Source: Escherichia phage atuna. Taken from it: a stretch of DNA of 50,732 nucleotides. The translations under genes and the position numbers were made by a program. This document shows, one piece after another, positions 5,822 to 42,510 of the stretch. Position 1 is the first letter of the stretch; every line of letters begins with the position of its first letter. The stretch is taken from sequence record NC_049819.1, one strand, 5' to 3'. Under the pieces are notes generated by a model that made no database searches, was not told where the DNA came from, and was given only the letters and a program-made list of their open reading frames with translations.

Positions 5822-5878
5822 CTTAAACCTTTAAAAAATGCCATTTGGAGTATATAATAGACTCATTACAATAAACTG

Positions 5879-5898
5879 TTTTAACAAAAAATGCTATG
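5879..5898 (-). promoter_or_regulatory. Conserved motif variant (TTTTAACAAAAAATGCTATG on plus) in divergent helicase / HTH-gene intergenic region
   Basis: Minus-strand reading gives motif then TATTAT 22 nt after TTGTTA, upstream of helicase; on plus strand the motif abuts the SD (GAGG) of gene 5909. Confidence 0.5.
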
Positions 5899-5908
5899 AG
5901 GTGACTAG

Positions 5909-6385
5909 ATGAAAGATGCACGAATTGCAGTATCTACTGGTGAGATCGACAAGCGCACTATTAACGGTAACAACGGAACGCGACGAGGTAAAGACAAAAA
6001 GCCACGAAAACACCGAACCGGATTTCTTATCCTGCGAGATGAGGTAAAAGCAAGCCTGAAATCTCGCCTTGACATTCTGATCGAGTATTACGGCGGTGTT
6101 CCTGCTATGGCCCGACGTCTGCGCGTATCTCAGCAAGTCGTTAACCAGTGGCGAAAGCGTGGTATGATTTCAGCCGCTGGAGCACAAAAGGTGCATAACG
6201 ACTACAAATATAATGGGTGCAAAGGATACCGCGCATCATTTTGTCGTCCAGATCTGCGGTTTGATTCTAACGGCAAGCCTCTTACTACCCGTTGCGACAA
6301 ATACGAAATGTTGCGCGTAGTCAAAAATTCAGACTACGAACCAGGCGGACGATTCTACAAAGGTGATAACAGCACGAATAGCTAA
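5909..6385 (+). CDS. HTH DNA-binding protein (Cro/YdaS-like motif)
   Basis: VPAMARRLRVSQQVVNQWRKRGMIS helix-turn-helix-like segment; SD gagg upstream. Confidence 0.5.
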   Translation: MKDARIAVSTGEIDKRTINGNNGTRRGKDKKPRKHRTGFLILRDEVKASLKSRLDILIEYYGGVPAMARRLRVSQQVVNQWRKRGMISAAGAQKVHNDYKYNGCKGYRASFCRPDLRFDSNGKPLTTRCDKYEMLRVVKNSDYEPGGRFYKGDNSTNS

Positions 6386-6392
6386 TGATAAG

Positions 6393-6428
6393 GCCCAGCG
6401 AAATGATAATATTTGCTGGGCTTTTTTA
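6393..6428 (+). terminator. Hairpin + T-run between HTH gene and primase-like gene
   Basis: gcccagcg...tgctgggc dyad followed by TTTTTTATT, then SD gagg and ATG 6441. Confidence 0.45.
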
Positions 6429-6440
6429 TTGAGGTTTGCC

Positions 6441-7370
6441 ATGAATACTGAAAACTTTATGACCTATCAGAAAGAAGATGTTTTACCATATATGAAGGGG
6501 TTATGGCGTGAAGCACTACAAAGCATTTGCGGACTGCATAGCGATGTTTTCAACAAAAAGCATCAGCCTTGCCCACACTGCGGCGGCAAGGATCGTTTTA
6601 GATGGACTGATAAGCTAAATGAAGAGGGCGACGGCGGCGCTATCTGCAACGTATGCGGTAACGACACGGGGATCGGTTGGTTAATGAAATTAACTGGCGA
6701 ACCTTACAGCGAGGCCATCAATATTTTGGGTCGCTTCCTCGGAAAAGTGCCGCAGGATTACAGGATCAGAGCAAACAAACGCGCTTCGCGTTCTTCTGGT
6801 TACTCGTTCGGGAAACAGGCAAGTCATGAATGCTGCGAAAAAGTGATGGCAAAAACATTAAAATTCGATCGCACACCTTTAAGCGTTTATGAGGGGATAT
6901 ATCCGACGGAAGGTTGTCATTATGATTGCGGCGTCAAGGATGGTCGATACATTCACGCGCTACCTTGTCACTTGGTGCATGATGACGGGCTTGATGATGA
7001 AATGTGTAACGTGCTTTTCATTGATGAGGATGGAAAGGATTGGTTTTTAGCTCGCGACTACACGCGCGGATCTGTTGTTAAAACAGGTAGCACAGATAAG
7101 ACGATCTATTTGTGCCTTGATTGGGTTGATTCCCAGCATGTTCATTTATCAACTGGTCAAGAGGTGTGGGCTTGCTTTACTCCTTCAAATCTTGAAATGG
7201 TTGCGCATAGATATAAAGGAGAAAGAAGAATGCGAGTAGTCTGCCGGAAAGATGATCGTGATGTGATAATCGCGGCAGAGGAAAGAGGTCTTGACATAAT
7301 GATGCCTGTTGACGATAATTTTAAACAGGGCGTAGAAAGAAAACTCTACAAGCCCGAATCACTACTATAA
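6441..7370 (+). CDS. Putative DNA primase-like protein with N-terminal zinc ribbon
   Basis: CPHCGG...CNVCG zinc-ribbon; start moved from 6363 to ATG 6441 (SD gagg; upstream region forms terminator hairpin); position between helicase and tail fibre. Confidence 0.5.
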   Translation: MNTENFMTYQKEDVLPYMKGLWREALQSICGLHSDVFNKKHQPCPHCGGKDRFRWTDKLNEEGDGGAICNVCGNDTGIGWLMKLTGEPYSEAINILGRFLGKVPQDYRIRANKRASRSSGYSFGKQASHECCEKVMAKTLKFDRTPLSVYEGIYPTEGCHYDCGVKDGRYIHALPCHLVHDDGLDDEMCNVLFIDEDGKDWFLARDYTRGSVVKTGSTDKTIYLCLDWVDSQHVHLSTGQEVWACFTPSNLEMVAHRYKGERRMRVVCRKDDRDVIIAAEERGLDIMMPVDDNFKQGVERKLYKPESLL

Positions 7371-7386
7371 AACTCCGCTAGTATTG

Positions 7387-7411
7387 CCCCGCTTATGCGG
7401 GGTTTTTTTTT
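7387..7411 (+). terminator. Rho-independent terminator after primase-like gene
   Basis: ccccgcttatgcgggg stem followed by T9. Confidence 0.75.
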
Positions 7412-7442
7412 GCATTTGAAAATGCTATTATCTGAATTGTCA

Positions 7443-7460
7443 TTAGCAAAAAGTGCTATT
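7443..7460 (-). promoter_or_regulatory. Conserved motif variant (TTAGCAAAAAGTGCTATT on plus) abutting tail-fibre SD; second partial copy at 7416-7430
   Basis: Sequence match to the 3' half of the motif, in inverted orientation relative to the downstream plus-strand gene. Confidence 0.4.
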
Positions 7461-7476
7461 TAGGAGGATTTTACAA

Positions 7477-9687
7477 ATGGCGATTTACAGACAAGGCCAA
7501 GCGTCTATGGACGCTCAAGGTTATGTAACTGGTTACGACACAAAATGGCGCGAGCAATTAACATTGATTCGCCCAGGTGCAACTATTTTCTTTCTTACTC
7601 AACCTTTGCAAGCTGCCGTGATCACAGAGGTGATTAGCGATACAAGCATTCGCGCAATTACTACTGGCGGCGCGGTAGTCCAGAAGACAAATTACCTGAT
7701 CTTGCTTCATGACTCGTTAACGGTTGACGGGCTTGCGCAGGATGTAGCGGAAACTTTGCGTTATTACCAGAGCAAGGAAACAGAAATTGCAGAAGCAATA
7801 GAGTTTTTTAAAGATTTTGATTTGGATGGCTTAAAGGATCTGGTGAATCAAGTTAAGGAATCTGCGCAACAAGTAGCAACAGATCGCGCAGCCACTGAAC
7901 AATTAAAAAATGACACTCAACAGATAAAGGATTCTGCTGTTGCTGAAACAAACCAGATTAAAGCAGACACTGACGCGATCAAAACTCAAACGCAACAGAT
8001 TAAAGATTCAGCTGTAACCGAAACTGAAGCCATTAAACAAGAGGCTTTCGGTGCTCGCGATCAGGCTGAACTGGCGCGTGATGCTGCTGGAAATCATGCC
8101 GTTGATGCAAATAATGCAAAGGCTGGCGCTGAAACTGCGCGTGATGAAGCTCGCCAGTGGGCGCAACAGGTAAATCCTGAAAATCTATTGCATAAGGATC
8201 AGAACCTTAAAGATCTTTCTGACATTGATGAAGCTCGCAGTACTCTTAGCATTGATTCATTTTTTCAGGATTACGTGCATACTATCTTGTACTCTAGAAA
8301 TAGAGAATATAGGCTCGTTATCAGAAATGATGGTCTTCTTGTTTTCCAGAGGGATGTATCAGGGTCTGGGTCATTTGAAACTGTTCCTTTAGCTATTTCT
8401 TCTGGTGGCACTGGAGCTATTGACGCAAATGGCATCAGAAACAATATAGGACTTGGCGAAAAACATGCACCAAAGTTTTTGAGTCTTAATGTTGAAAACG
8501 AAACGGAAAATGCAACTACTGCAAACGCAGGTATATACCATTCAAAACTAAAGAATACACAAGGTGAAGATATTGGATCTTCTCAGTCTTATTTTGAAAC
8601 TCAAGTAGGCGTAGGAAAGCATACAATAGGCGTATTTCATAATGGGGCATCACAGTATTATCAGTTTAATGAAAATGGTGCTTTTTCAGGAGCGAAAAGC
8701 ATTTCCTTAGCTCCTGGGGCTGGTATTTATGTAGATGGGAATGAGCGAAATGCGTCGCAATTGTTTTCAATTCCAAGTCCACCAATCAACACATGGACTG
8801 GTGTAAGTCGTTACAACTGGTATGACGATTACGCTATCGCTGGTTTAATCAGAAGAGGAGATACACACGTTGAATCTTTTGGAATAGAATTGTATCAAGC
8901 AGGGATACAGTCCTATATGCACAAGTTTTACCCTGACGGCAAAACGCATTCTGCTCAATACACCGGAAGAACTCAACAAATGGGGTGGGACGATCCAAAT
9001 TATTGGGGTAATGCTCTTGTTTGGGGTGAGGTTGTAACCAATAATGATGGCGGCTGGAGTCCTGGGTTATCTTGGGCTACACAATCAACTGGTGGATACC
9101 CGATTCGTGCAACTTGGGGTCTTATCGCACAAGGTAATAATGCATGGCCACTTTGTTCTCTAAGGCTTCGTGGTGATGGTGGTTTTTTCTGCAATTTCCA
9201 GTTTAATCCGGCATCAAACGATATAACTACATGGTCATCAAGTGGAAATTTCATTTTCCAAAAGGCAGCTAACTCTGACAGGGATTTAAAGCACGATATA
9301 ATTTATACAGATGGAAAAGAAAGCTATGATCGCGTTATGCAGTGGCTGCCTACCATGTTTAAATACAATGGAAGCAACATCCAGCGATTCGGGATGATAG
9401 CTCAGGATCTGTTAAAAATAGATCCTGAATATGTAAAGCTAATACCTGGAGGGGACATTTTTGCAGATGTTATAGGCGTTAATGATGAAGGTGAAGAATA
9501 TGTGGATCGTCAGATTGTGGTTGACAAAGCAGATGATACACTAGCTCTTGACAATAACGTTATCATGGCTGATATGGCTTGCGCTATGGTCTACATGGGA
9601 AACAAAATTGAGAAAATGGAGAAAGAGATAGAGGATCTAAAAAAAGCGGTAGCGAAATTAATAAACAATCCAACAGATACAGAATAA
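7477..9687 (+). CDS. Tail fibre protein with C-terminal intramolecular chaperone (peptidase S74-like) domain
   Basis: ATG 7477 after AGGAGG; C-terminal [30 protein letters not shown]...[13 protein letters not shown] resembles self-cleaving chaperone domain of T5-type fibres; coiled-coil ending. Confidence 0.75.
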
Positions 9688-17120: not shown

Positions 17121-17168
17121 GACTTTTAACCTTTTGTGCTGTTTCTTGGTTTGCACATTATAAATGCA

Positions 17169-17197: not shown

Positions 17198-17674
17198 CTA
17201 CTTTCCGTGGTTTATGTGGAATTTGTTTAAAACTTCAATCTCTATCCTCTTTTCTGCCGCATCCTGAAATGAATCAAAGTAAAATTCATGCCTAACACCA
17301 TCAATCTTTGCTCTTGCAATCCATTTTCCGCGACTAAAGTTTACTCCAGTAATTCCCGTCTTGCTGTTCCTGTAAAGCGACTTATTCTTGTTGTTAACAC
17401 TCATTCTAACAAGTCTTAAGTTTGAAATATTGTCGTTCATTGTGTTGTGATCTATGTGATCAACTTGCATTCCATGCGGTATTTCTCCATTATGAATTTC
17501 CCAAACTATCCTGCTCCTGTAGTATCTTTCTCCATCAATTGATATTCTAACCCTTTCTCCACTCTTCTTGCTTTTGCTTACGCTTCCTGCCTCACTTCCT
17601 TTCTTTATCCTTCTTCCTACGTCTACAGCCCAAAATAACTTACCGTCATTATAATAAAAAATATCACGCCACAT
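17198..17674 (-). CDS. HNH homing endonuclease with AP2 DNA-binding domain
   Basis: HIDHNTMNDNISNLRLV (HNH) and GITGVNFSRGKWIARAKIDGVRHEFYFDSFQDAAEKR (AP2-like); ATG 17674 after AAGGAGGTG. Confidence 0.8.
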   Translation of the reverse strand: MWRDIFYYNDGKLFWAVDVGRRIKKGSEAGSVSKSKKSGERVRISIDGERYYRSRIVWEIHNGEIPHGMQVDHIDHNTMNDNISNLRLVRMSVNNKNKSLYRNSKTGITGVNFSRGKWIARAKIDGVRHEFYFDSFQDAAEKRIEIEVLNKFHINHGK

Positions 17675-17717: not shown

Positions 17718-17737
17718 TTTAACATATTGTGCTATTT
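17718..17737 (-). promoter_or_regulatory. Degenerate motif copy (AATAGCACAATATGTTAAA) + hairpin immediately upstream of HNH gene
   Basis: Motif with TTTTT replaced by AATAT, followed by aaagcgaaaacggattttcgcttt hairpin and SD. Confidence 0.45.
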
Positions 17738-22941: not shown

Positions 22942-23268
22942 TTATGTTTTGTTTGAATGAATCATTTCTAGCGCCTTTTGTTCCATGATGCGCAAATCAT
23001 TTAGCGCCATCTCCCGATCCTCAATCTTGTAAATGTCAAAAAGCATAGGCAAAACGTTATAGTCGAACCCATACACACTGCCGCTAGTCGATCTCCATTG
23101 CGTCTGCATAGCGCAAAACAGATCCCAAGATTGAAACATTGATTCATCAAAAATTACCTCCGGCGGCTCCTCCCCTTCGTAGTCTGAACGGGATAGGCCG
23201 ACGGCCTCTAATTGTGCGTCAGTTGGCGGCTTGAGGTAAAACAGGTAAACCGCCCGCTTTAGTTTTTT
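22942..23268 (-). CDS. Tail assembly chaperone, -1 frameshift extension (T-like part of G-T fusion)
   Basis: Frame open from slippery A_AAA_AAC (23268-23262) to stop at 22942 in the -1 frame relative to G gene; no SD/ATG of its own at the 5' end. Confidence 0.5.
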   Translation of the reverse strand, partial: KKLKRAVYLFYLKPPTDAQLEAVGLSRSDYEGEEPPEVIFDESMFQSWDLFCAMQTQWRSTSGSVYGFDYNVLPMLFDIYKIEDREMALNDLRIMEQKALEMIHSNKT

Positions 23269-23576
23269 ACCCGCTGCCCCGCAAGTGCTTTCATATAATG
23301 ACCAGTCAGCGATAATGACGCAGAAGGGTAATAATCCAGCAATTTAGCAACGTTTTCCTCGTTAAATTCATCTTCCAGATCCCAACCGGAAGCAAGGAAG
23401 GTGATCATTTCTACGTCGCTCATCGGCTTTTCTGCCGTGTATCGTTCGTGAATCTCGCTTGCCTTCTTGTGGCGCACGGTAAAAACAATAACTTGCTCAT
23501 CACCATTTGGAAGCACAAAAGAAACAGGCAGCTTAAAATCAGGCAGTGGCCCTAACGTTAGCTTCATCTTTGCCAT
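23259..23576 (-). CDS. Tail assembly chaperone (lambda G-like)
   Basis: 105 aa, acidic; directly upstream of tape measure; ends 2 codons after slippery heptamer. Confidence 0.55.
   Translation of the reverse strand: MAKMKLTLGPLPDFKLPVSFVLPNGDEQVIVFTVRHKKASEIHERYTAEKPMSDVEMITFLASGWDLEDEFNEENVAKLLDYYPSASLSLTGHYMKALAGQRVKN
23262..23268 (-). other. Programmed -1 ribosomal frameshift slippery heptamer A_AAA_AAC
   Basis: Heptamer in G frame as gtA AAA AAC immediately before stop; -1 frame continues open into downstream ORF. Confidence 0.55.
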
Positions 23577-23590
23577 CTCAAGATCTCCTT

Positions 23591-23609
23591 ATAGCACTTT
23601 TTGTTAAAA
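23591..23609 (+). promoter_or_regulatory. Conserved motif copy (ATAGCACTTTTTGTTAAAA), inverted relative to flanking minus-strand late genes; abuts SD of G-like gene
   Basis: Exact 19/20 match; plus-strand reading is followed 35-40 nt later by bidirectional hairpin aaggggcgcaacgcccctt + gtttt. Confidence 0.5.
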
Positions 23610-23675
23610 GTGGAATTGATTTATTTGATAGATTGATTTTACAGGAATGAAAAAAGGGGCGCAACGCCCCTTGTT

Positions 23676-24338
23676 TTAATTGATGTCGGAAGATAAGAAC
23701 GTAAATCTACCTTTCAGAGATACGGAAAGGGAAACAGTTTCCATTTCGTTCATAGTGGTTTGCGGAATGTCATTAAAGGACAATACGCCAGCCCAGCAAC
23801 GCATCTCTTTAGCTTTCGGAACATACATACGTAAAGCGGTTACGTCGCCGGATTCCTCAGCCTCGCGTAAGATCGGATAAATCGGATTATCATATTCATG
23901 CGCGAAAGTGTAGGTAAGAGAAACCGCGCTCTTGTAGGTCGGTAACTGCTGCTCCTGGTCATCAGCCAAACACTGATAAGTGTAATACTGTTGCTCGCCT
24001 CCGTCCTGCGCAAGATCCTGTACGCAAGGAATCTCTACCCATGATTTTACTTCTCGGAAGGTTGCTGTATTAGAACCAGCCGGAAACACGTTCTGATCGG
24101 TTGTGTCTACACCTTCAAGGGTAACACTTTCATTGTCGGTAACGGCCTTAACGCGCAACACGCGGCTAACCAACTTACCCCACGAAGACGTTTCAATCAG
24201 AACATAAGCACCCTTCTTGATATTTTTTGTGTCGGTCGCTGTAAATACAGGCTCATTAGCGTTAGTGATAGCCGTAGCCTGAATCGGATCGCCCATATTA
24301 ACGCCGATGAAAATTTGAGAACCATTAGGCAAGTGCAT
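23676..24338 (-). CDS. Major tail protein
   Basis: 220 aa, position upstream of G/T chaperones. Confidence 0.6.
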   Translation of the reverse strand: MHLPNGSQIFIGVNMGDPIQATAITNANEPVFTATDTKNIKKGAYVLIETSSWGKLVSRVLRVKAVTDNESVTLEGVDTTDQNVFPAGSNTATFREVKSWVEIPCVQDLAQDGGEQQYYTYQCLADDQEQQLPTYKSAVSLTYTFAHEYDNPIYPILREAEESGDVTALRMYVPKAKEMRCWAGVLSFNDIPQTTMNEMETVSLSVSLKGRFTFLSSDIN

Positions 24339-24340
24339 GA

Positions 24341-24742
24341 TTATTCCTCCTTTGTATCAAGCCTAACACTGAAACGGATCGGCAAGAACCAACCTGTTTC
24401 ACTTTTTAGTAATGTGTGGACGTTTGCCCCCTCGCTAATATAGCCAGTTTCAATCATTCTACCATCATAGAAAAATCTCGCAATCTCTTTAGCCAGCAAA
24501 CGCGCTTTATCAGTGCCACCGCCAGGAGGAATGACAATCCCAACCTGAACCAAACCGATATAAGAAACACATTTTCTATCAAGAGATATGCGATCCGTGT
24601 CTGCTTCCATGTAGTTAAATTTTAACCACATAGAACCATCTCCAGGCGGCACAAAATCAACGTTTTCATAGGCTATCTTAAATCGTGATTCATATTCAGC
24701 CGCCAGCGCCTTTCTTGCCGCCAACATTAAATCATAGTGCAT
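24341..24742 (-). CDS. Tail completion / tail terminator protein (positional)
   Basis: 133-aa ORF between neck genes and major tail gene. Confidence 0.35.
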   Translation of the reverse strand: MHYDLMLAARKALAAEYESRFKIAYENVDFVPPGDGSMWLKFNYMEADTDRISLDRKCVSYIGLVQVGIVIPPGGGTDKARLLAKEIARFFYDGRMIETGYISEGANVHTLLKSETGWFLPIRFSVRLDTKEE

Positions 24743-25184
24743 TTTTTGCCCTCGAATCCTTTATTGCCTTAGCCATATAAGATCGCAGCTTTACCGCCAC
24801 GATTCCAAGTACGCCGGACGGCGCTTGTTTTGAATGACCGTATTCAAGCGCGTTGGCGTAAATGAGCATGTTTGAAAAATAGATTGACCGCACCGCGCCA
24901 CCGCCACGCATGATTGCATATATTGCTCGCTTACCTTCTGCAATGGTTTTACCACCATCGCGATCGTATTGGTTGAGCGCATATAGCGGCGGCTTGTTTG
25001 CTGTTATCTGCCAGTTGGCTTTATATCGGCCCGTATCAACTGGCGAGCGATTTACAAGATCCTCGTGGACGTTTGTCGCGAACATTTCAACGCAATCAAC
25101 AAGGCCGCTGCTTACTGAATCAATCCACCTGCTTATATCACCGTGAAATTCCCTGATCTTATAATTATCAGCCATGCACAGCAA
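24732..25184 (-). CDS. Neck / tail-attachment protein (positional)
   Basis: 150-aa ORF; start uncertain (Met1 or Met4). Confidence 0.35.
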   Translation of the reverse strand: MLCMADNYKIREFHGDISRWIDSVSSGLVDCVEMFATNVHEDLVNRSPVDTGRYKANWQITANKPPLYALNQYDRDGGKTIAEGKRAIYAIMRGGGAVRSIYFSNMLIYANALEYGHSKQAPSGVLGIVAVKLRSYMAKAIKDSRAKNAL

Positions 25185-25548
25185 TCCTCCTTAATATCGG
25201 ACGATAAGCCGCTGTGATGTTAGTCTGCCTGACTGGTCTTGCTTCAACGACAACATAACGTTCGCCATCAATTTCAATCTGATAACCATTTTTGATCTCA
25301 GTTTCATTGGTGAATATCCCCAACTTGTCGGTTACTCGGATTGTTTCACCGTCAACCTCTCTAGTCCTCGGAGATCTAACAAGCCCCTTTATCATCACTG
25401 AAATCTCCGGCTTGGTAACTTCCTCTCCGCCGATAATCTCAACTCCGCCCTGCTGCGTGATGCACTTAAACATACCGTTAGCGTCGCTGAAAAAGTTAAT
25501 CCCAGCCGTAGCCATTCTTGCAATCTCATTGTAGTTCATCGGCAACAT
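25168..25548 (-). CDS. Head closure protein (positional)
   Basis: 126-aa ORF in head-tail joining cluster. Confidence 0.35.
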
Positions 25549-25955
25549 CTCCGGCGCAATCCAGTTACAAGGCCAAAACCGCCACCGTGCTTACGGTTTA
25601 ACACTTCGTACATTTTTCCCCACGGCGTTTGTCGGATCTGCTTTCCGCTTGTATCGGAAGAGATTCGATCAAACGTCTGACTAAACTCACCAGTCAGAGT
25701 GAACGAGGCGACGCGGCGGGAATAGCTTTCTACGCTTTCACCTTCCTGTTTCATTGCCCCGTCTAAGGTCATAAGGTGAAGAGTGTAAAGCGCAACCGCT
25801 TTCGGGTATGAGTTTTTAAACCTCTTTTTGCAAACAAACTCTTTAGCAAGCTCAATCCATGCCACAATTAAATCGGGATCAACTTGTTGCATTGGCGGCG
25901 CTAACTTTACGATTTGCTGCATGATTTCAGCGTCTGTGTAAAATTCATCTACCAT
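25536..25955 (-). CDS. Head-tail connector / adaptor protein (positional)
   Basis: 139-aa ORF downstream of capsid gene. Confidence 0.4.
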
Positions 25956-26001
25956 TTTGTTTTCTCCAGATGTGACAAAGGGCGCATAAGCGCCCCAATT
26001 A

Positions 26002-26316
26002 TTAATATTCGCCGCCGTCCTCTAGCTCTTTGCGGCTCTTGCCCTCGGTAGGATCTTTTTTGCGCTTCTTCTCCGCTTTCGCCTTGATTTGCTCGTTAAT
26101 TTCTGAATTGTCTTTAACTTCCACATCACCGCGAGCGATCAGGTATTCAACTGCGGAATCATTAATGCGATCGGATTCAATTTCAATTTCATCACCAGGA
26201 TGATAACGCTTACCGTCCATAATAATCATGCAAACGCCAGTTACTTTAAGTTTTAAAGTTTTGCTCATTTTGTGTACTCCATAAATAAAGAAAGGGGAAC
26301 CATTAAGGCTCCCCAT
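26002..26316 (-). CDS. Hypothetical structural protein (104 aa)
   Basis: ORF with basic C-terminus immediately downstream of capsid gene. Confidence 0.4.
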
Positions 26317-26325
26317 GTTATCTAA

Positions 26326-27297
26326 TTAATCAGCTTTTTTCAAGCCAGTAATAAGCACCATCGTAAAAGGACGATAAATCGTAAGGCCAGTACACTTGGA
26401 AGTGCAAGGAACCTTGAAATGTAGGTCTTTTGGCTGCGCCGGAAGCATGTTAAACGCTTCTGGAATCTCAATGCTCATGTTCATTGGATCTTTTTCGTAA
26501 ACCAAGCAACCTTTCGTACCTTTGCCGTCAATATCCTCAAGCTCTGCGATAGAGTCGATAGTGATACCGCCGTTTTGCTTCTGGAAGTATTCCAGATAAC
26601 TTTCAGTGGTATTTTCCATTCGAACCGTCAGGACTTTGCGCATGGACGGCGGGATCAGGATGTTAGTCGCGCGGTGCTGGCCTTTTGTTACTTCCTCGAT
26701 CGTTTCGATTGCGGCCTCCAGTTCATCGCTTGCTACCTGCGGGAACTTGGTATTGCCGTCATTGCTCATCCAGCCTTTGGATGCAATTTTCGTAAGGTTA
26801 GGATGATCGAAAACGGAAACGATCTTATGAGGCTTGGAACCTTTGAACACCAGGAAGTTAATCAACTGATCATGCGCATTTTGCGCAGCGTTAGCCTTGC
26901 GAGTTGACAGGCTCTTGCCAGTTCGCTGACCTGCTTTAATCTCATCAATGGAGATCAGATAAGCGTTACCCAGGCGGAACACTTTGCCAAACTCAGAAGT
27001 CATCAACGCGTCCACAGTCGGCAGATCATCGGTGTAGTCGGCGATAATTTTCGCGTAGCCAACCTTATCAAAAGTCTGATATTCGAAAGTCTTGTCAGTA
27101 TCAGAAAGCTCGTTTGTTACAGGGAATACGCGAAGCGCGGAACCTGCCGGATACTCTTTCTCGTATGCGGTAGAGCGGATCTTGTGTAGCTCTTGAGCGG
27201 TCCAAATACCCATATCAGAAGCGTCGGTCTTAACACCCTGAATCTGCAAATGATTCGCTACAATCGTAGCATCTAGTTCATCATATTTTTTAGCCAT
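26326..27297 (-). CDS. Major capsid protein
   Basis: 323 aa; preceded by strong SD GGAGG; position after scaffold/decoration-like genes. Confidence 0.6.
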   Translation of the reverse strand: MAKKYDELDATIVANHLQIQGVKTDASDMGIWTAQELHKIRSTAYEKEYPAGSALRVFPVTNELSDTDKTFEYQTFDKVGYAKIIADYTDDLPTVDALMTSEFGKVFRLGNAYLISIDEIKAGQRTGKSLSTRKANAAQNAHDQLINFLVFKGSKPHKIVSVFDHPNLTKIASKGWMSNDGNTKFPQVASDELEAAIETIEEVTKGQHRATNILIPPSMRKVLTVRMENTTESYLEYFQKQNGGITIDSIAELEDIDGKGTKGCLVYEKDPMNMSIEIPEAFNMLPAQPKDLHFKVPCTSKCTGLTIYRPFTMVLITGLKKAD

Positions 27298-27343
27298 TTT
27301 GTTTCCTCCATAAAAAAGGCCGTTAAATGTAACGGCCTAGATG

Positions 27344-27361
27344 ATAGCACTTTTTGTTAAA
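27344..27361 (+). promoter_or_regulatory. Conserved motif copy inverted relative to capsid gene, with partial inverted partner at 27370-27386
   Basis: ATAGCACTTTTTGTTAAA then cgtgcaatg then tttttttATGCTATTAG; located between hairpin/T-run/SD of capsid gene and preceding stop. Confidence 0.45.
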
Positions 27362-27387
27362 CGTGCAATGTTTTTTTATGCTATTAG

Positions 27388-31919: not shown

Positions 31920-31970
31920 ATCTCCATAATAAAAAAAGGCTGGAAAAATCCAGCCTTGATTATATAACTT

Positions 31971-31990
31971 TTTAGCAATTAGTGCTATTT
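31971..31990 (-). promoter_or_regulatory. Motif variant (AATAGCACTAATTGCTAAAA) + TATAAT + hairpin/T-run upstream of portal gene
   Basis: Minus-strand reading: variant motif, TATATAAT, hairpin aaggctggatttttccagcctt, T7, ATTATGGAG, ATG. Confidence 0.5.
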
Positions 31991-38982: not shown

Positions 38983-39002
38983 TTTTAACAAAAAGTGCTA
39001 TT
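38983..39002 (-). promoter_or_regulatory. Conserved intergenic motif copy (exact) + hairpin containing ATAGTA
   Basis: Exact 20-mer; ATAGTA 23 nt after TTGTTA on minus strand; leader CCCATCAACAACAAAC. Confidence 0.55.
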
Positions 39003-41429: not shown

Positions 41430-41685
41430 TAATATCTGTTGTGACTTGCTGGTGCATTACGTTCTTTCCGCTGTTGTACGTGCTATCCGTTGCGCCTTTG
41501 CAATTGGTGTAATAGATCGCGCGACCGTTATCATAGAATCTGTATGCTGTGCATCCGTCAACAGTGAACAGGCGGCCGACTTTGAAATCTGACTCCACGC
41601 CTACGACAACCGTTGATTCTGATGCCTTTTCGCATCCGGTCAGGAGTGTCATTGCCACCAAAACACCGATTAACGCCTTTTTCAT
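41425..41685 (-). CDS. Lipoprotein (86 aa)
   Basis: Signal peptide with lipobox LTGC (MKKALIGVLVAMTLLTGC). Confidence 0.55.
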   Translation of the reverse strand: MKKALIGVLVAMTLLTGCEKASESTVVVGVESDFKVGRLFTVDGCTAYRFYDNGRAIYYTNCKGATDSTYNSGKNVMHQQVTTDIK

Positions 41686-42146
41686 TGTTCATCCTCCAGG
41701 AAAGTTTTTTTGATCATCGCGTGAAAGTCAGCGACGGCCTTTGATAATGTTTCATACTCTTCCGGCGCATAGTTTGCCAGGTTTGGCGACATATCAATGA
41801 TCGCCTCTGCAACCTTGCGCTTAGCCTGGCGCACCGCCCTTTCCAGTGCCTCTTTGTTGTAAACCTTGCGACGGCCTTCAACAATCCGCACCTCGTAGAA
41901 AGTGCTACCGAAGTTTTCATCTTCCGGCCCGTAAACGCCACGGGTAACGGATACGCGCCCCCGCTCGGCGACTTCTGGCACTCGACTCATGATCTGGCGA
42001 ATGTAGGCCGCCGGATTGCTTGCCGACTTCTTGCCGAACATGTGGACCTGCAAATACGCGTCAGGAATCTTGATCGTCTCTTCCTCGCCATTAGCCAGCA
42101 TAATAGCGGCACGGCGCAGCGTGTCAGTGAATGATTGCTCGCTCAT
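41682..42146 (-). CDS. Hypothetical early protein (154 aa)
   Basis: Start at ATG (MSEQSF) after CAGGAGGTAG; first gene of leftward early arm. Confidence 0.5.
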   Translation of the reverse strand: MSEQSFTDTLRRAAIMLANGEEETIKIPDAYLQVHMFGKKSASNPAAYIRQIMSRVPEVAERGRVSVTRGVYGPEDENFGSTFYEVRIVEGRRKVYNKEALERAVRQAKRKVAEAIIDMSPNLANYAPEEYETLSKAVADFHAMIKKTFLEDEQ

Positions 42147-42174
42147 TTCTACCTCCTGGTTGTTAGGTGTGGGC

Positions 42175-42203
42175 ATTATCAATAATGCTATTTAATGTGT
42201 CAA
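42175..42203 (-). promoter_or_regulatory. Sigma70-type promoter (TTGACA-N17-GATAAT) for leftward early arm
   Basis: Exact TTGACA, 17-nt spacer, GATAAT on minus strand about 30 nt upstream of SD of gene 41682-42146. Confidence 0.6.
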
Positions 42204-42510
42204 CTGTTTTTTCTTGTTCCCGCGTGTTTTATCAATTTTACATGGTGGCACAATAACAATATAGGCGTTATTTTTCCTTATAAATCAATGTTATCATTGC
42301 CTGTTATCTAAGTTTTCTCGCGGAAAGTGCCATATAGATATATATACCCCTACATACCCATACACACATACAGATACACAAAAACTATATACCCCCACCA
42401 AATACCACAATAACCAAGATAACAAAAGAGAATATATAGATACATATAAATAAATAATCCTTATTTTTCAATGTATTATATAGGTATTGTTTGTTATTTT
42501 TTGTTATCGT
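42196..42510. repeat. A+C-rich strand-skewed low-complexity element, copy B (homologous to 12141-12350, with about 100-bp extra segment)
   Basis: Shared blocks with copy A; sits in the 640-bp non-coding region between divergent early arms. Confidence 0.6.

Follow-up and report, generated by a model that had tools for sequence, protein, structure and literature searches.

Why does a repeated motif of a T1-like phage lie backwards beside late genes? We examined this in the 50,732-nt genome of Escherichia phage atuna (NC_049819.1; hereafter the window), a T1-like phage (Drexlerviridae, Warwickvirus) that is 98% identical to phage FritzSarasin. The original prediction placed motif copies at 23591, 27344 and 7443 antisense to the neighbouring late gene and offered two explanations, namely short antisense or attenuated RNAs started from the motif, or a factor that binds it in either orientation. 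At stake is how early and late transcription are put in order by Drexlerviridae, which have neither a polymerase nor a sigma factor of their own. They are very common as coliphages and Klebsiella phages, and T1, from the classic set of seven T phages, belongs to them. The literature we searched holds no transcriptome, start-site, expression or binding data for any T1-like phage.

The repeat itself is already known. In phage TLS it was described as 21-nt direct repeats DR1–DR18 of the family aaATAGCACnnnTTGnTAAAA, with ~20 intergenic copies, and the same family was reported for T1, Rtp and Rogue1 (PMC11447400). That 2024 paper assigned no function to the repeat, suggested a UP-like enhancer, and stated that the repeats are all oriented with transcription, ~76 nt upstream of the start codon (PMC11447400). 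The three copies considered here are arranged otherwise: all are reversed relative to the adjacent gene, at distances of 14 nt (23591), 46 nt (27344) and 17 nt (7443) from its start codon. In the TLS listing DR7 is on the negative strand (15044–15024; PMC11447400), and we find it to be the counterpart of the 27344 copy. The claim that the repeats all point with transcription is thereby corrected. New here, and not described in the TLS paper (PMC11447400), are a 22-nt spacing rule, a −42 geometry and the reversed copies within late promoters.

A symmetric motif at a fixed distance from −10 elements

The 17-base motif ATAGCACnnnTTGnTAA occurs 20 times in the window at up to three mismatches, against 0.28 copies expected by chance. 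The predicted opposite-strand copies could all be located: ATAGCACTTTTTGTTAA is exact at 23591–23607 and 27344–27360 (both plus strand), and ATAGCACTTTTTGCTAA at 7443–7459 (minus strand) has one mismatch, the common GCTAA variant; all three thus match the published T1-like consensus. The motif is a dyad, TAGCA-N5-TGYTA, with half-site centres 10 bp apart. Its centre varies (TTT, GAA or TAA) between invariant flanks, and position 14 is C or T about equally often, C giving a perfect dyad. G4, C5 and G13 are the same in 74 of 74 copies, an invariance that the search pattern itself favours; the GAA-centred class is conserved as well as the others, and the motif is unchanged across E. coli and Klebsiella phages. 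We consider this symmetric motif to be probably a protein-binding site.

A motif-type promoter was defined by a −10-like hexamer with A at position 2, T at position 6 and at least four of six matches, 21–22 nt after TTGNTA, and spacings were counted in four genomes (the window, T1, TLS and KP36). Such a hexamer lies 21–22 nt downstream of the motif in 64 of the 74 copies, against a background rate of 3–5%. At the −35 distance of 16–18 nt, the best match is three of six or fewer in 60 of 61 motif-type promoters. A motif 21–22 nt upstream of the −10 has its dyad centre at about −42 (−42 or −41), an activator position, and with the −35 weak or absent this is the geometry of a class II activator-dependent promoter. 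CRP- and FNR-dependent promoters of class II are defined by a dyad near −41.5, a poor −35 and a good −10, and the motif-type promoters share all three features, whereas the presumed activator here would be phage-encoded and unrelated to CRP. The ten exceptions to the 22-nt rule include every deviating late-gene copy: capsid (four genomes), tail fibre (two), portal and T1 terS.

These regularities also bear on a reading that needs no phage protein, in which the motif would be a polymerase-contact site resembling a UP element, or the site of a host factor common to E. coli and Klebsiella, and the reversed copies would be backward promoters or neutral passengers. The TLS authors proposed such an enhancer (PMC11447400), the T-type motif is A/T-rich, and the sameness of the motif in E. 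coli and Klebsiella phages would suit a host factor; most early promoters carry the motif, which would be handy if the start of infection needs no phage protein. We nevertheless think this reading improbable, as the site is a dyad with centres 10 bp apart, G4, C5 and G13 are specific, and GAA-centred copies are equally conserved. A UP element, by contrast, is an A/T-rich tract at −40 to −60 without specific G or C positions, and it would serve no purpose within a leader or the spacer of a promoter. We know of no E. coli factor with the motif's consensus.

The reversed copies and the late promoters

The copy beside the tape-measure chaperone gene lies among these features:

23591–23607, plus strand: motif copy, adjoining the chaperone gene and reversed to it; ~−51 to −35 of a putative backward plus-strand promoter (its upstream element) and ~+23 to +39 of the sense leader
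23585–23590 and 23574–23576, minus strand: SD AAGGAG and start codon of the tape-measure chaperone gene (23259–23576)
23629–23634, plus strand: antisense −10-like TAGATT, exactly 22 nt after TTGTTA, with a predicted start at ~23641
23636–23664, minus strand: sense late promoter of the chaperone gene, with −35 TTGCGC (23659–23664), a 17-nt spacer and −10 TAAAAT (23636–23641)
23654–23672, both strands: two-way terminator hairpin that ends the major tail gene transcript, fold −15.8 kcal/mol

The sense promoter has its predicted start at A 23629 and its −35 inside the terminator loop. A sense −10 (TAAAAT, TACAAT, TAGAAT, TAATAT, CATAAT or TATAAT) follows right after the terminator in 15 of 15 lineages examined, and the record of phage Rogue1 has a promoter annotated at this place. 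On the other strand, the plus-strand start that had been proposed for this copy is plausible from the order of motif, −10, start and hairpin listed above. An antisense TANNNT stands at an invariant 28-nt spacing in 8/8 lineages with the motif and 0/7 without it, counts that ignore shared ancestry. The 19-nt TTTTAACAAAAAGTGCTAT is identical in seven of the eight motif-bearing lineages (LHE71 has one substitution), flanks and intervening sequence diverge, and relatives have anything from 0 to 9 nt between motif and SD. Because motif and antisense −10 co-occur and their spacing is invariant, the 23591 copy appears to be a real backward promoter overlapping the sense late promoter; the antisense TANNNT at 23629–23634 overlaps the sense start region, and its conservation could partly reflect the sense promoter. 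In this phage the hairpin would also stop the backward RNA after ~37 nt, with the tail UUGUUUU. In the antisense direction the window and PHB17 have a U-tract after the hairpin, T1, LHE71 and L099 have none, and because T1-type lineages are without it, the short terminated RNA is not a conserved feature.

At the major capsid gene the features are:

27344–27360, plus strand: motif copy upstream of the gene
27341–27368, minus strand: sense sigma-70-type promoter, with −35 TTGCAC (27363–27368), a 16-nt spacer, TGC and −10 TATCAT (27341–27346)
27317–27338, minus strand: hairpin with T-run between the promoter and the SD; terminates the upstream head operon

Read on the gene strand, the motif makes up the promoter spacer with the TGn and runs into the −10 as far as its third base, and its dyad centre falls at about −18. 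Among 72 distinct upstream regions of relatives whose capsid proteins are 53–99% identical, 64 have the layout TTG(A/C)(A/C/G)(C/G)-16-TAT(CAT/TCT/ATT/TAT); the −35 and −10 persist in relatives where the motif has degenerated, and the KP36 record has a promoter annotated at the same place. The start is predicted at 27333–27337, inside the 5' arm of the hairpin, whose fold is worth −13.1 kcal/mol for a transcript starting at 27338 and weakens to −5.5 kcal/mol for one starting at 27333. By eye, the stem changes in sequence among relatives yet keeps its pairing.

The tail-fibre leader is arranged as follows:

7443–7459, minus strand: motif copy, reversed to the gene, at ~+6 to +22 of the sense promoter
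7423–7431, plus strand: sense extended −10 TGCTATTAT of the tail-fibre gene, start ~7438

This copy is a perfect dyad (TAGCA-N5-TGCTA), and the same arrangement is found at T1 34902. Relatives keep the extended −10 whether or not they carry the motif, and T1 has TGATAAAAT in its place; TLS and three further lineages (L108, L112 and L113) have no motif copy at the tail-fibre leader. The partial inverted partner that had been seen beside the 27344 copy is there (27378–27387) but is not conserved in relatives. Near 7443 relatives do preserve a similar sequence, ATGCTATTAT, which is the tail-fibre gene's sense promoter; what had been read as the motif's partner is TGCTATTAT. The chaperone and tail-fibre copies are dispensable add-ons, because TLS and KP36 are both without them.

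Direct contact with the SD, expected at all three genes, was found at 23591, nearly so at 7443 (a 2-nt gap to the SD at 7462–7467), but not at 27344, where the 22-nt hairpin and T-run separate the motif from the SD at 27305–27309. The motif end that faces the SD is the 5' end, ATAGCAC, and not the 3' end as first described. Beyond these three genes, the copy at 5881–5897 abuts the SD of a regulator gene. Among leader copies, those of the tail-fibre, chaperone and regulator genes are reversed, and direct ones are found at the J gene (17126–17142 in the window; T1 25021; TLS 24908) and at T1 terS.

For the proposed short RNAs this leaves the 23591 copy, with its motif–22 nt–TANNNT layout, and not the other two: neither 27344 nor 7443 has an antisense −10 at 21–22 nt, and the hexamers at 16–17 nt are not conserved (T1, TLS and IMG/VR relatives). 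As a class, then, the reversed copies do not look like small-RNA genes; they are, as far as layout can tell, the same symmetric site, placed within three late-gene promoters or immediately behind them, and the 23591 copy alone also forms a predicted backward-facing promoter. The other proposal, a factor that binds independently of orientation, would fit all copies, the motif being a dyad that late leaders carry in both orientations.

A candidate regulator and a model for one operator

A possible binder is encoded next to one of the copies:

5909–6385, plus strand: candidate motif-binding regulator, 158 aa, with a Cro-like helix-turn-helix at residues 53–92
5881–5897, minus strand: motif copy between the helicase and regulator genes, abutting the regulator SD (5898–5903; ATG at 5909)
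5830–5858, plus strand: canonical sigma-70-like regulator promoter, TTTAAA-17-TATAAT

The protein matches the Pfam families YdaS_toxin (E = 1.2e-6) and P22_Cro (E = 6.5e-4), both below curated cut-offs, as well as phrog_2856, 'transcriptional regulator' (E = 1.6e-72), and the Cro proteins 5w8y and 3bd1, and it is conserved in T1, TLS and KP36. It is a candidate binder by position and fold family. The 5881–5897 copy is direct to the helicase promoter (−10 TATTAT, 5854–5859, minus strand) and reversed to the regulator gene, whose −10 overlaps the helicase −10 on the opposite strand. This layout is found in all lineages examined but one (L143, a partial match in which no motif was found). The regulator promoter corresponds to TLS P57, one of only three canonical TLS promoters (PMC11447400).

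Sequence and comparison show how the sites are arranged, where the sense promoters lie, and that motif and antisense −10 occur together. From these we infer binding of a protein to the motif, the identity of the binder, its activating or repressing effect and its timing. We lean, with some reserve, towards a model in which a dimeric Cro-like phage regulator acts on one operator, activating at −42 and repressing or diverting RNA polymerase at late promoters. The motif would be a 15–17 bp dyad operator, probably bound by a regulator dimer, for which the 5909–6385 protein is the best candidate. In ~85% of copies the dyad is centred near −42 of a promoter with a −10 and no −35, which would be the activating position, and these promoters would drive early and DNA-metabolism genes. 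At late promoters the bound protein would hinder host RNA polymerase, and orientation would be irrelevant there because the site is symmetric. At 27344 the protein would cover the capsid promoter's spacer and some of its −10, and at 7443 it would cover ~+6 to +22 of the tail-fibre promoter. At 23591 a complete backward motif-type promoter would lie with its motif ~23–39 nt downstream of the sense chaperone start and with its −10 and start overlapping the sense −10 and start, so that a polymerase recruited there would exclude the sense promoter; its product in this phage would be only the ~37-nt RNA stopped at the two-way terminator. The same layout at 5830–5897 would let the regulator repress itself. 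The model requires the regulator's activity to drop late in infection.

Phage lambda offers a close parallel. In the CI/Cro system at OR (PRM, PR), a helix-turn-helix dimer bound to a dyad operator switches on one promoter from about −42, shuts off a divergent one and controls its own gene, and the motif half-site TAGCAC is one base away from lambda TATCAC. In contrast to lambda, the phage here is virulent with ~20 proposed activating sites, each measuring 15 bp (6+3+6) and not 17 bp, the two −10s overlap on opposite strands, and binding is a prediction. At coliphage 186 pR/pL and P2 Pe/Pc, overlapping polymerase footprints exclude joint occupancy and a regulator can tip the balance; unlike these, the competing promoter at the chaperone locus has no gene of its own and runs into a terminator or reads the major tail gene in antisense. 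Many copies of one site across a genome, some of them downstream of promoters, also recall the stoperators of the temperate mycobacteriophage L5, which are repressor sites, asymmetric, in one orientation and in transcribed regions. The motif is not of this type, being a dyad, mostly at a fixed promoter position, with leader copies in both orientations.

A broader scheme, which we put forward only tentatively and think rather doubtful as a whole, would have one Cro-like protein and one dyad time the entire T1-type lytic programme: ~20 early and middle promoters activated at −42, the capsid and tail-fibre promoters blocked, the gene-less chaperone promoter serving as a decoy that only keeps polymerase off the late promoter, late genes switched on as the regulator is diluted over replicated genomes, and possibly early-mRNA motifs pairing with reversed copies in late leaders. 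The geometry itself gives a testable hypothesis, one regulator and one site with opposite outcomes by position, including an unusual backward promoter laid over a late promoter, and it provides compact, portable promoter and operator parts.

Readings without a bound protein at the late genes

Control could also act on RNA. Direct copies overlap the stop codons of upstream genes, with a hairpin next, and early mRNAs that read through these copies would carry AUAGCACUUUUUGUUAA in their 3' regions. This is perfectly complementary to UUAACAAAAAGUGCUAU, which lies beside the SD in the leaders of the chaperone, tail-fibre and regulator genes, and a duplex between the two would stop translation or lead to cleavage. 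Three reversed copies do lie 0–2 nt from the SD inside predicted leaders, and relatives keep the reversed copy within the leader, 0–9 nt from the SD. However, the capsid copy is upstream of its own start site, the direct J-gene and T1 terS leader copies could not pair in this way, no known RNA family in Rfam matches the window, and the dyad symmetry, the 22-nt rule and the invariant 28-nt chaperone spacing would be left unexplained. We judge this mechanism unlikely.

That all three reversed copies are promoters of functional small antisense RNAs seems to us very unlikely: the complete layout at 23591, with a terminator ~37 nt on in this phage, would suit it, but the chaperone-site antisense terminator is not conserved, 27344 and 7443 are without a conserved antisense −10, and Rfam again gives no match. 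Least credible is that recombination has scattered the reversed copies as remnants without a function: TLS, KP36 and several other genera do lack those at the chaperone and tail-fibre genes, but against this stand a 19-nt sequence kept at invariant spacing between diverging flanks and a capsid copy that is near-universal.

Motif copies in the window and a published repeat

Over an 8-kb query around the finding, the window is 98.3% identical to Escherichia phage FritzSarasin, a member of the T1-like siphovirus group (Drexlerviridae, Tempevirinae, Warwickvirus). The motif, a 17-nt repeat with the dyad TAGCA-N5-TGYTA, was searched as ATAGCACTTTTTGTTAA and gave 20 matches in the window at ≤3 mismatches, compared with 0.28 expected by chance. 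Copies are named here by their start coordinates; direct copies point with transcription and reversed copies lie opposite to the adjacent gene. The original prediction that three late genes carry reversed copies was largely right, and a fourth reversed copy is found at the gene of a Cro-like protein (the regulator, 5909-6385).

23259-23576, minus: tape-measure chaperone gene, adjoining copy 23591
23591-23607, plus: motif copy, reversed relative to the chaperone gene
26326-27297, minus: major capsid protein gene, adjoining copy 27344
27344-27360, plus: motif copy, reversed relative to the capsid gene
7477-9687, plus: lateral tail fibre gene, adjoining copy 7443
7443-7459, minus: motif copy, reversed relative to the tail-fibre gene
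5881-5897: fourth reversed motif copy, touching the SD of the regulator gene (ATG 5909)
5830-5858: canonical regulator promoter TTTAAA-17-TATAAT; the reversed motif begins after a further 22 nt and precedes the SD and ATG

Each late-gene copy had also been described as abutting an SD, which is true of 23591, which touches it; copy 7443 is 2 nt away, but at 27344 a 22-nt hairpin and T-run lie between.

The motif corresponds to a 21-nt "direct repeat", aaATAGCACnnnTTGnTAAAA, described in 2024 in phage TLS and noted in T1, Rtp and Rogue1 as well, whose role was left undecided, with a stoperator, enhancer or UP element proposed (PMC11447400). The text of that paper states that the repeats are all oriented with transcription; however, its Supplementary Table S1 is at odds with this, listing DR7 (15044-15024) on the negative strand amid plus-strand head genes, beside terminator T35 and upstream of the capsid gene (PMC11447400). 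DR7 is the TLS counterpart of copy 27344. Our search of the literature on T1-like phages found no transcriptome, start-site or binding study, and an Rfam scan of the whole window gave no match.

Direct copies and the candidate regulator

Among the copies in the window, T1, TLS and Klebsiella phage KP36, 64/74 have a -10-like hexamer 21-22 nt after the motif end TTGNTA (the 22-nt rule), most commonly at exactly 22 nt; the background frequency of such a hexamer at these positions is 3-5%. At ordinary copies the -10 is followed by a conserved CATCGAAACGA-like start region and then the SD. These motif promoters lack a -35: in 60 of 61, the closest match at 16-18 nt is no better than 3/6. The ten exceptions to the rule include every late-gene copy that departs from it (capsid in 4/4 genomes, tail fibre (2), the window's portal and T1 terS), and the others are a pair of T1 copies at 23 nt and a copy at the T1 genome end.

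The flanks of the motif are invariant and its centre varies (TTT, GAA or TAA); with C at position 14 it becomes the dyad TAGCA-N5-TGCTA, whose half-sites are centred 10 bp from each other. At motif promoters the dyad is centred at -42 or -41, where class II activators bind, as does lambda CI at PRM. The TTGTTA of the motif was ruled out as a sigma-70 -35, since the spacer would be 21-22 nt, and in an informal comparison of consensus sequences by eye, none of sigma-54, sigma-32, IHF, Fis and CRP fitted the motif. We also considered reversed copies as extended -10 elements of their own (TGCTATnnn). At the chaperone, tail-fibre and regulator genes this was ruled out, as transcription would then start beyond a well-placed SD; the opposite strand of direct copies bears the same TGCTATTTA/TAG. 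Only for the capsid gene, with its conserved -35, do we accept a putative extended -10 within the reversed copy.

On the strand opposite to the regulator promoter, the motif is followed after 21-22 nt by the helicase -10, which overlaps the regulator's -10, and this helicase-regulator layout is the same in every lineage examined except L143, a partial match. The TLS counterpart, P57, is one of just three canonical sigma-70 promoters found in that genome (PMC11447400). The regulator carries a Cro-like helix-turn-helix and is conserved in T1, TLS and KP36; together with the leader layout, these features make it, by position and fold family, the leading candidate for a protein that binds the motif. 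Host polymerase would transcribe its gene first; the protein would next activate the motif promoters and would then silence its own promoter. A Pfam scan of ten early ORFs, which was not exhaustive, found no second DNA-binding protein. Outside the helix-turn-helix, the regulator alignment (A1) shows a basic stretch near the N terminus that is invariant (DKR..NGNNG..RGKD.K.R), and its C-terminal region, which contains Cys, is also conserved (GCKGYRASFCRPDLRFDSNGKP...RC).

At many direct promoters the -10 hexamer lies within or against a GC-rich hairpin, as at window 6369-6440 (+) and at 38985, 39356, 40949, 44047 and 44774; the hairpin at the primase gene forms a full terminator whose loop contains TAATAT. 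The layout resembles a promoter set within a terminator, in which upstream transcripts would meet the hairpin and transcripts begun inside it would be without its 5' arm. Separately, a canonical TTGACA-16-TGATAAT at about 42185-42215 (-), ahead of the DUF7174 gene (41682-42182), holds an ATAGCAT half-site in its spacer and may be an immediate-early promoter that is shut off later.

Reversed copies at the three late genes

23659-23664 (TTGCGC, in the terminator loop), 17 nt, 23636-23641 (TAAAAT): chaperone sense promoter, predicted start 23629
23629-23634, plus: -10 of a backward promoter, predicted start near 23641
27363-27368 (-35, TTGCAC), 16-nt spacer, TGC, 27341-27346 (-10, TATCAT), minus: capsid sense promoter
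27317-27338: 22-nt hairpin with T-run, between copy 27344 and the SD
7423-7431: sense extended -10 of the tail-fibre gene, TGCTATTAT, after the primase terminator

At the chaperone gene, the sense -10 lies directly 3' of the major-tail terminator in all 15 lineages examined, and the reversed motif is present in eight (the window, T1, LHE71, PHB17, L086, L099, L101 and L102). In 8/8 of these, exactly 28 nt separate the sense -10 from the motif, despite diverged intervening sequence, whereas the motif-to-SD distance varies from 0 to 9 nt. An antisense TANNNT lies exactly 22 nt from TTGTTA in all eight (TAGATT, TAAGAT, TACGAT, TAGGAT, TATCAT, TAGAGT, TACAGT and TAGAGT) and at that place in 0/7 motif-free lineages (TLS, KP36, K50_evo26, ESP2949-1, Rogue1, HCF1 and Ec_L1), counts that take no account of shared ancestry; its conservation is to be read with the caveat that the hexamer coincides partly with the sense start region. 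Copy 23591 thus follows the motif-promoter rule, directed away from the chaperone gene, and because the backward -10 and start overlap the sense -10 and start, the two promoters could not be occupied together. A short transcript ended by a hairpin had been proposed here, and in the window the backward RNA is indeed predicted to be about 37 nt, ending at a two-way hairpin. However, the antisense U-tract is absent from T1, LHE71 and L099, so the short RNA is not the conserved feature. Comparison of these lineages indicates that the conserved feature is the overlap of the two predicted promoters, and the backward promoter likely serves promoter competition, not production of the RNA itself.

For the capsid gene we compared 79 loci, representing 72 distinct upstream regions, whose capsid proteins share 53-99% identity with that of the window. 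The gene-strand layout TTG(A/C)(A/C/G)(C/G)-16 nt-TAT(CAT/TCT/ATT/TAT) is found in 64 of them. At this promoter the spacer, TGn and the first three -10 bases come from the reversed motif. In Webervirus the capsid motif has decayed to ATATCACGAATCGTTAA, yet the -35 and -10 are retained; KP36 direct copies keep the normal consensus, and the KP36 record annotates a promoter at the capsid site. The proposed antisense promoter did not withstand comparison with TLS and IMG/VR relatives, in which no conserved antisense -10 was found and the sigma-70 candidate TTGTTA-17-TATGCT is not kept; the TATGCT that the window has at 17 nt is lineage-specific, as is the inverted "partner" ATGCTATTAG. The capsid dyad is centred at about -18, so a protein bound there would lie over the core promoter. 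Transcription is predicted to start within the 5' arm of the hairpin, from which we infer that upstream transcripts would end at the hairpin and capsid transcripts would be without the full stem; shifting the start from 27338 to 27333 weakens the predicted fold from -13.1 to -5.5 kcal/mol.

The portal gene shares this promoter-then-hairpin order (31938-31988): a direct copy at 31972-31988 (-) overlaps the -35 and spacer of TATAAT 31959-31964, which is followed by a hairpin with a T-run (31938-31955) and then the SD. In KP36 a promoter plus stem-loop is annotated ahead of the portal gene.

At the tail-fibre gene, the sequence that resembles a "partial partner" of copy 7443 is the actual sense promoter, whose extended -10 (TGATAAAAT in T1) is kept in relatives with and without the motif, in a thin comparison of 6 loci only in IMG/VR. 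The copy spans about +6 to +22 of this promoter, and an antisense -10 at 21-22 nt from it is absent in the window and T1. The small-RNA reading is thereby confined to 23591; neither 27344 nor 7443 has such a conserved -10. The primase gene contains, at its 3' end, a TTGACA-17-GATAAT (7291-7319 (+), 11/12 to consensus) ~65 nt ahead of the 7386-7403 terminator and the tail-fibre gene; this element is kept in close relatives L109-L112 and could be an attenuated second tail-fibre promoter.

Orientation and a proposed shared mechanism

Late-gene leaders contain the motif in either orientation: the tail-fibre, chaperone and regulator genes have reversed copies, and the J gene (window 17126-17142, T1 25021, TLS 24908) and T1 terS have direct ones, a mixture that suits a symmetric protein site and not an orientation-dependent RNA signal. 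The orientation-independent factor offered in the original prediction would fit all copies, given this mixture and the symmetry of the dyad. One dyad would activate from -42 and repress at late promoters, in a variation on the familiar designs of lambda OR and class II activators. We lean only slightly towards this mechanism, because its basis is sequence geometry and comparison alone. Other explanations accord less well with the dyad and the 22-nt rule, and with the conservation of the sense promoters: a host factor or UP element accounting for the motif; pairing of direct with reversed copies at the RNA level; a functional small RNA from each of the three reversed copies, for which 23591 has the promoter geometry; and reversed copies as functionless remnants.

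The direct J-gene copy at 17126-17142 (-) is A-centred (ACAGCACAAAAGGTTAA) and lies 14 nt after TATAAT 17157-17162, with the SD within the copy, an arrangement common to T1 and TLS. Between the tail-assembly and J genes is an extra 158-aa ORF (17198-17674 (-)) with its own motif-22-TACAAT promoter (motif 17719-17735) and hairpin. The corresponding stretch of FritzSarasin is just 79 nt long, so we read the ORF as an insertion, and its HNH-endonuclease-like sequence HIDHNTMNDNISNLRL makes it look like a homing-endonuclease insertion.
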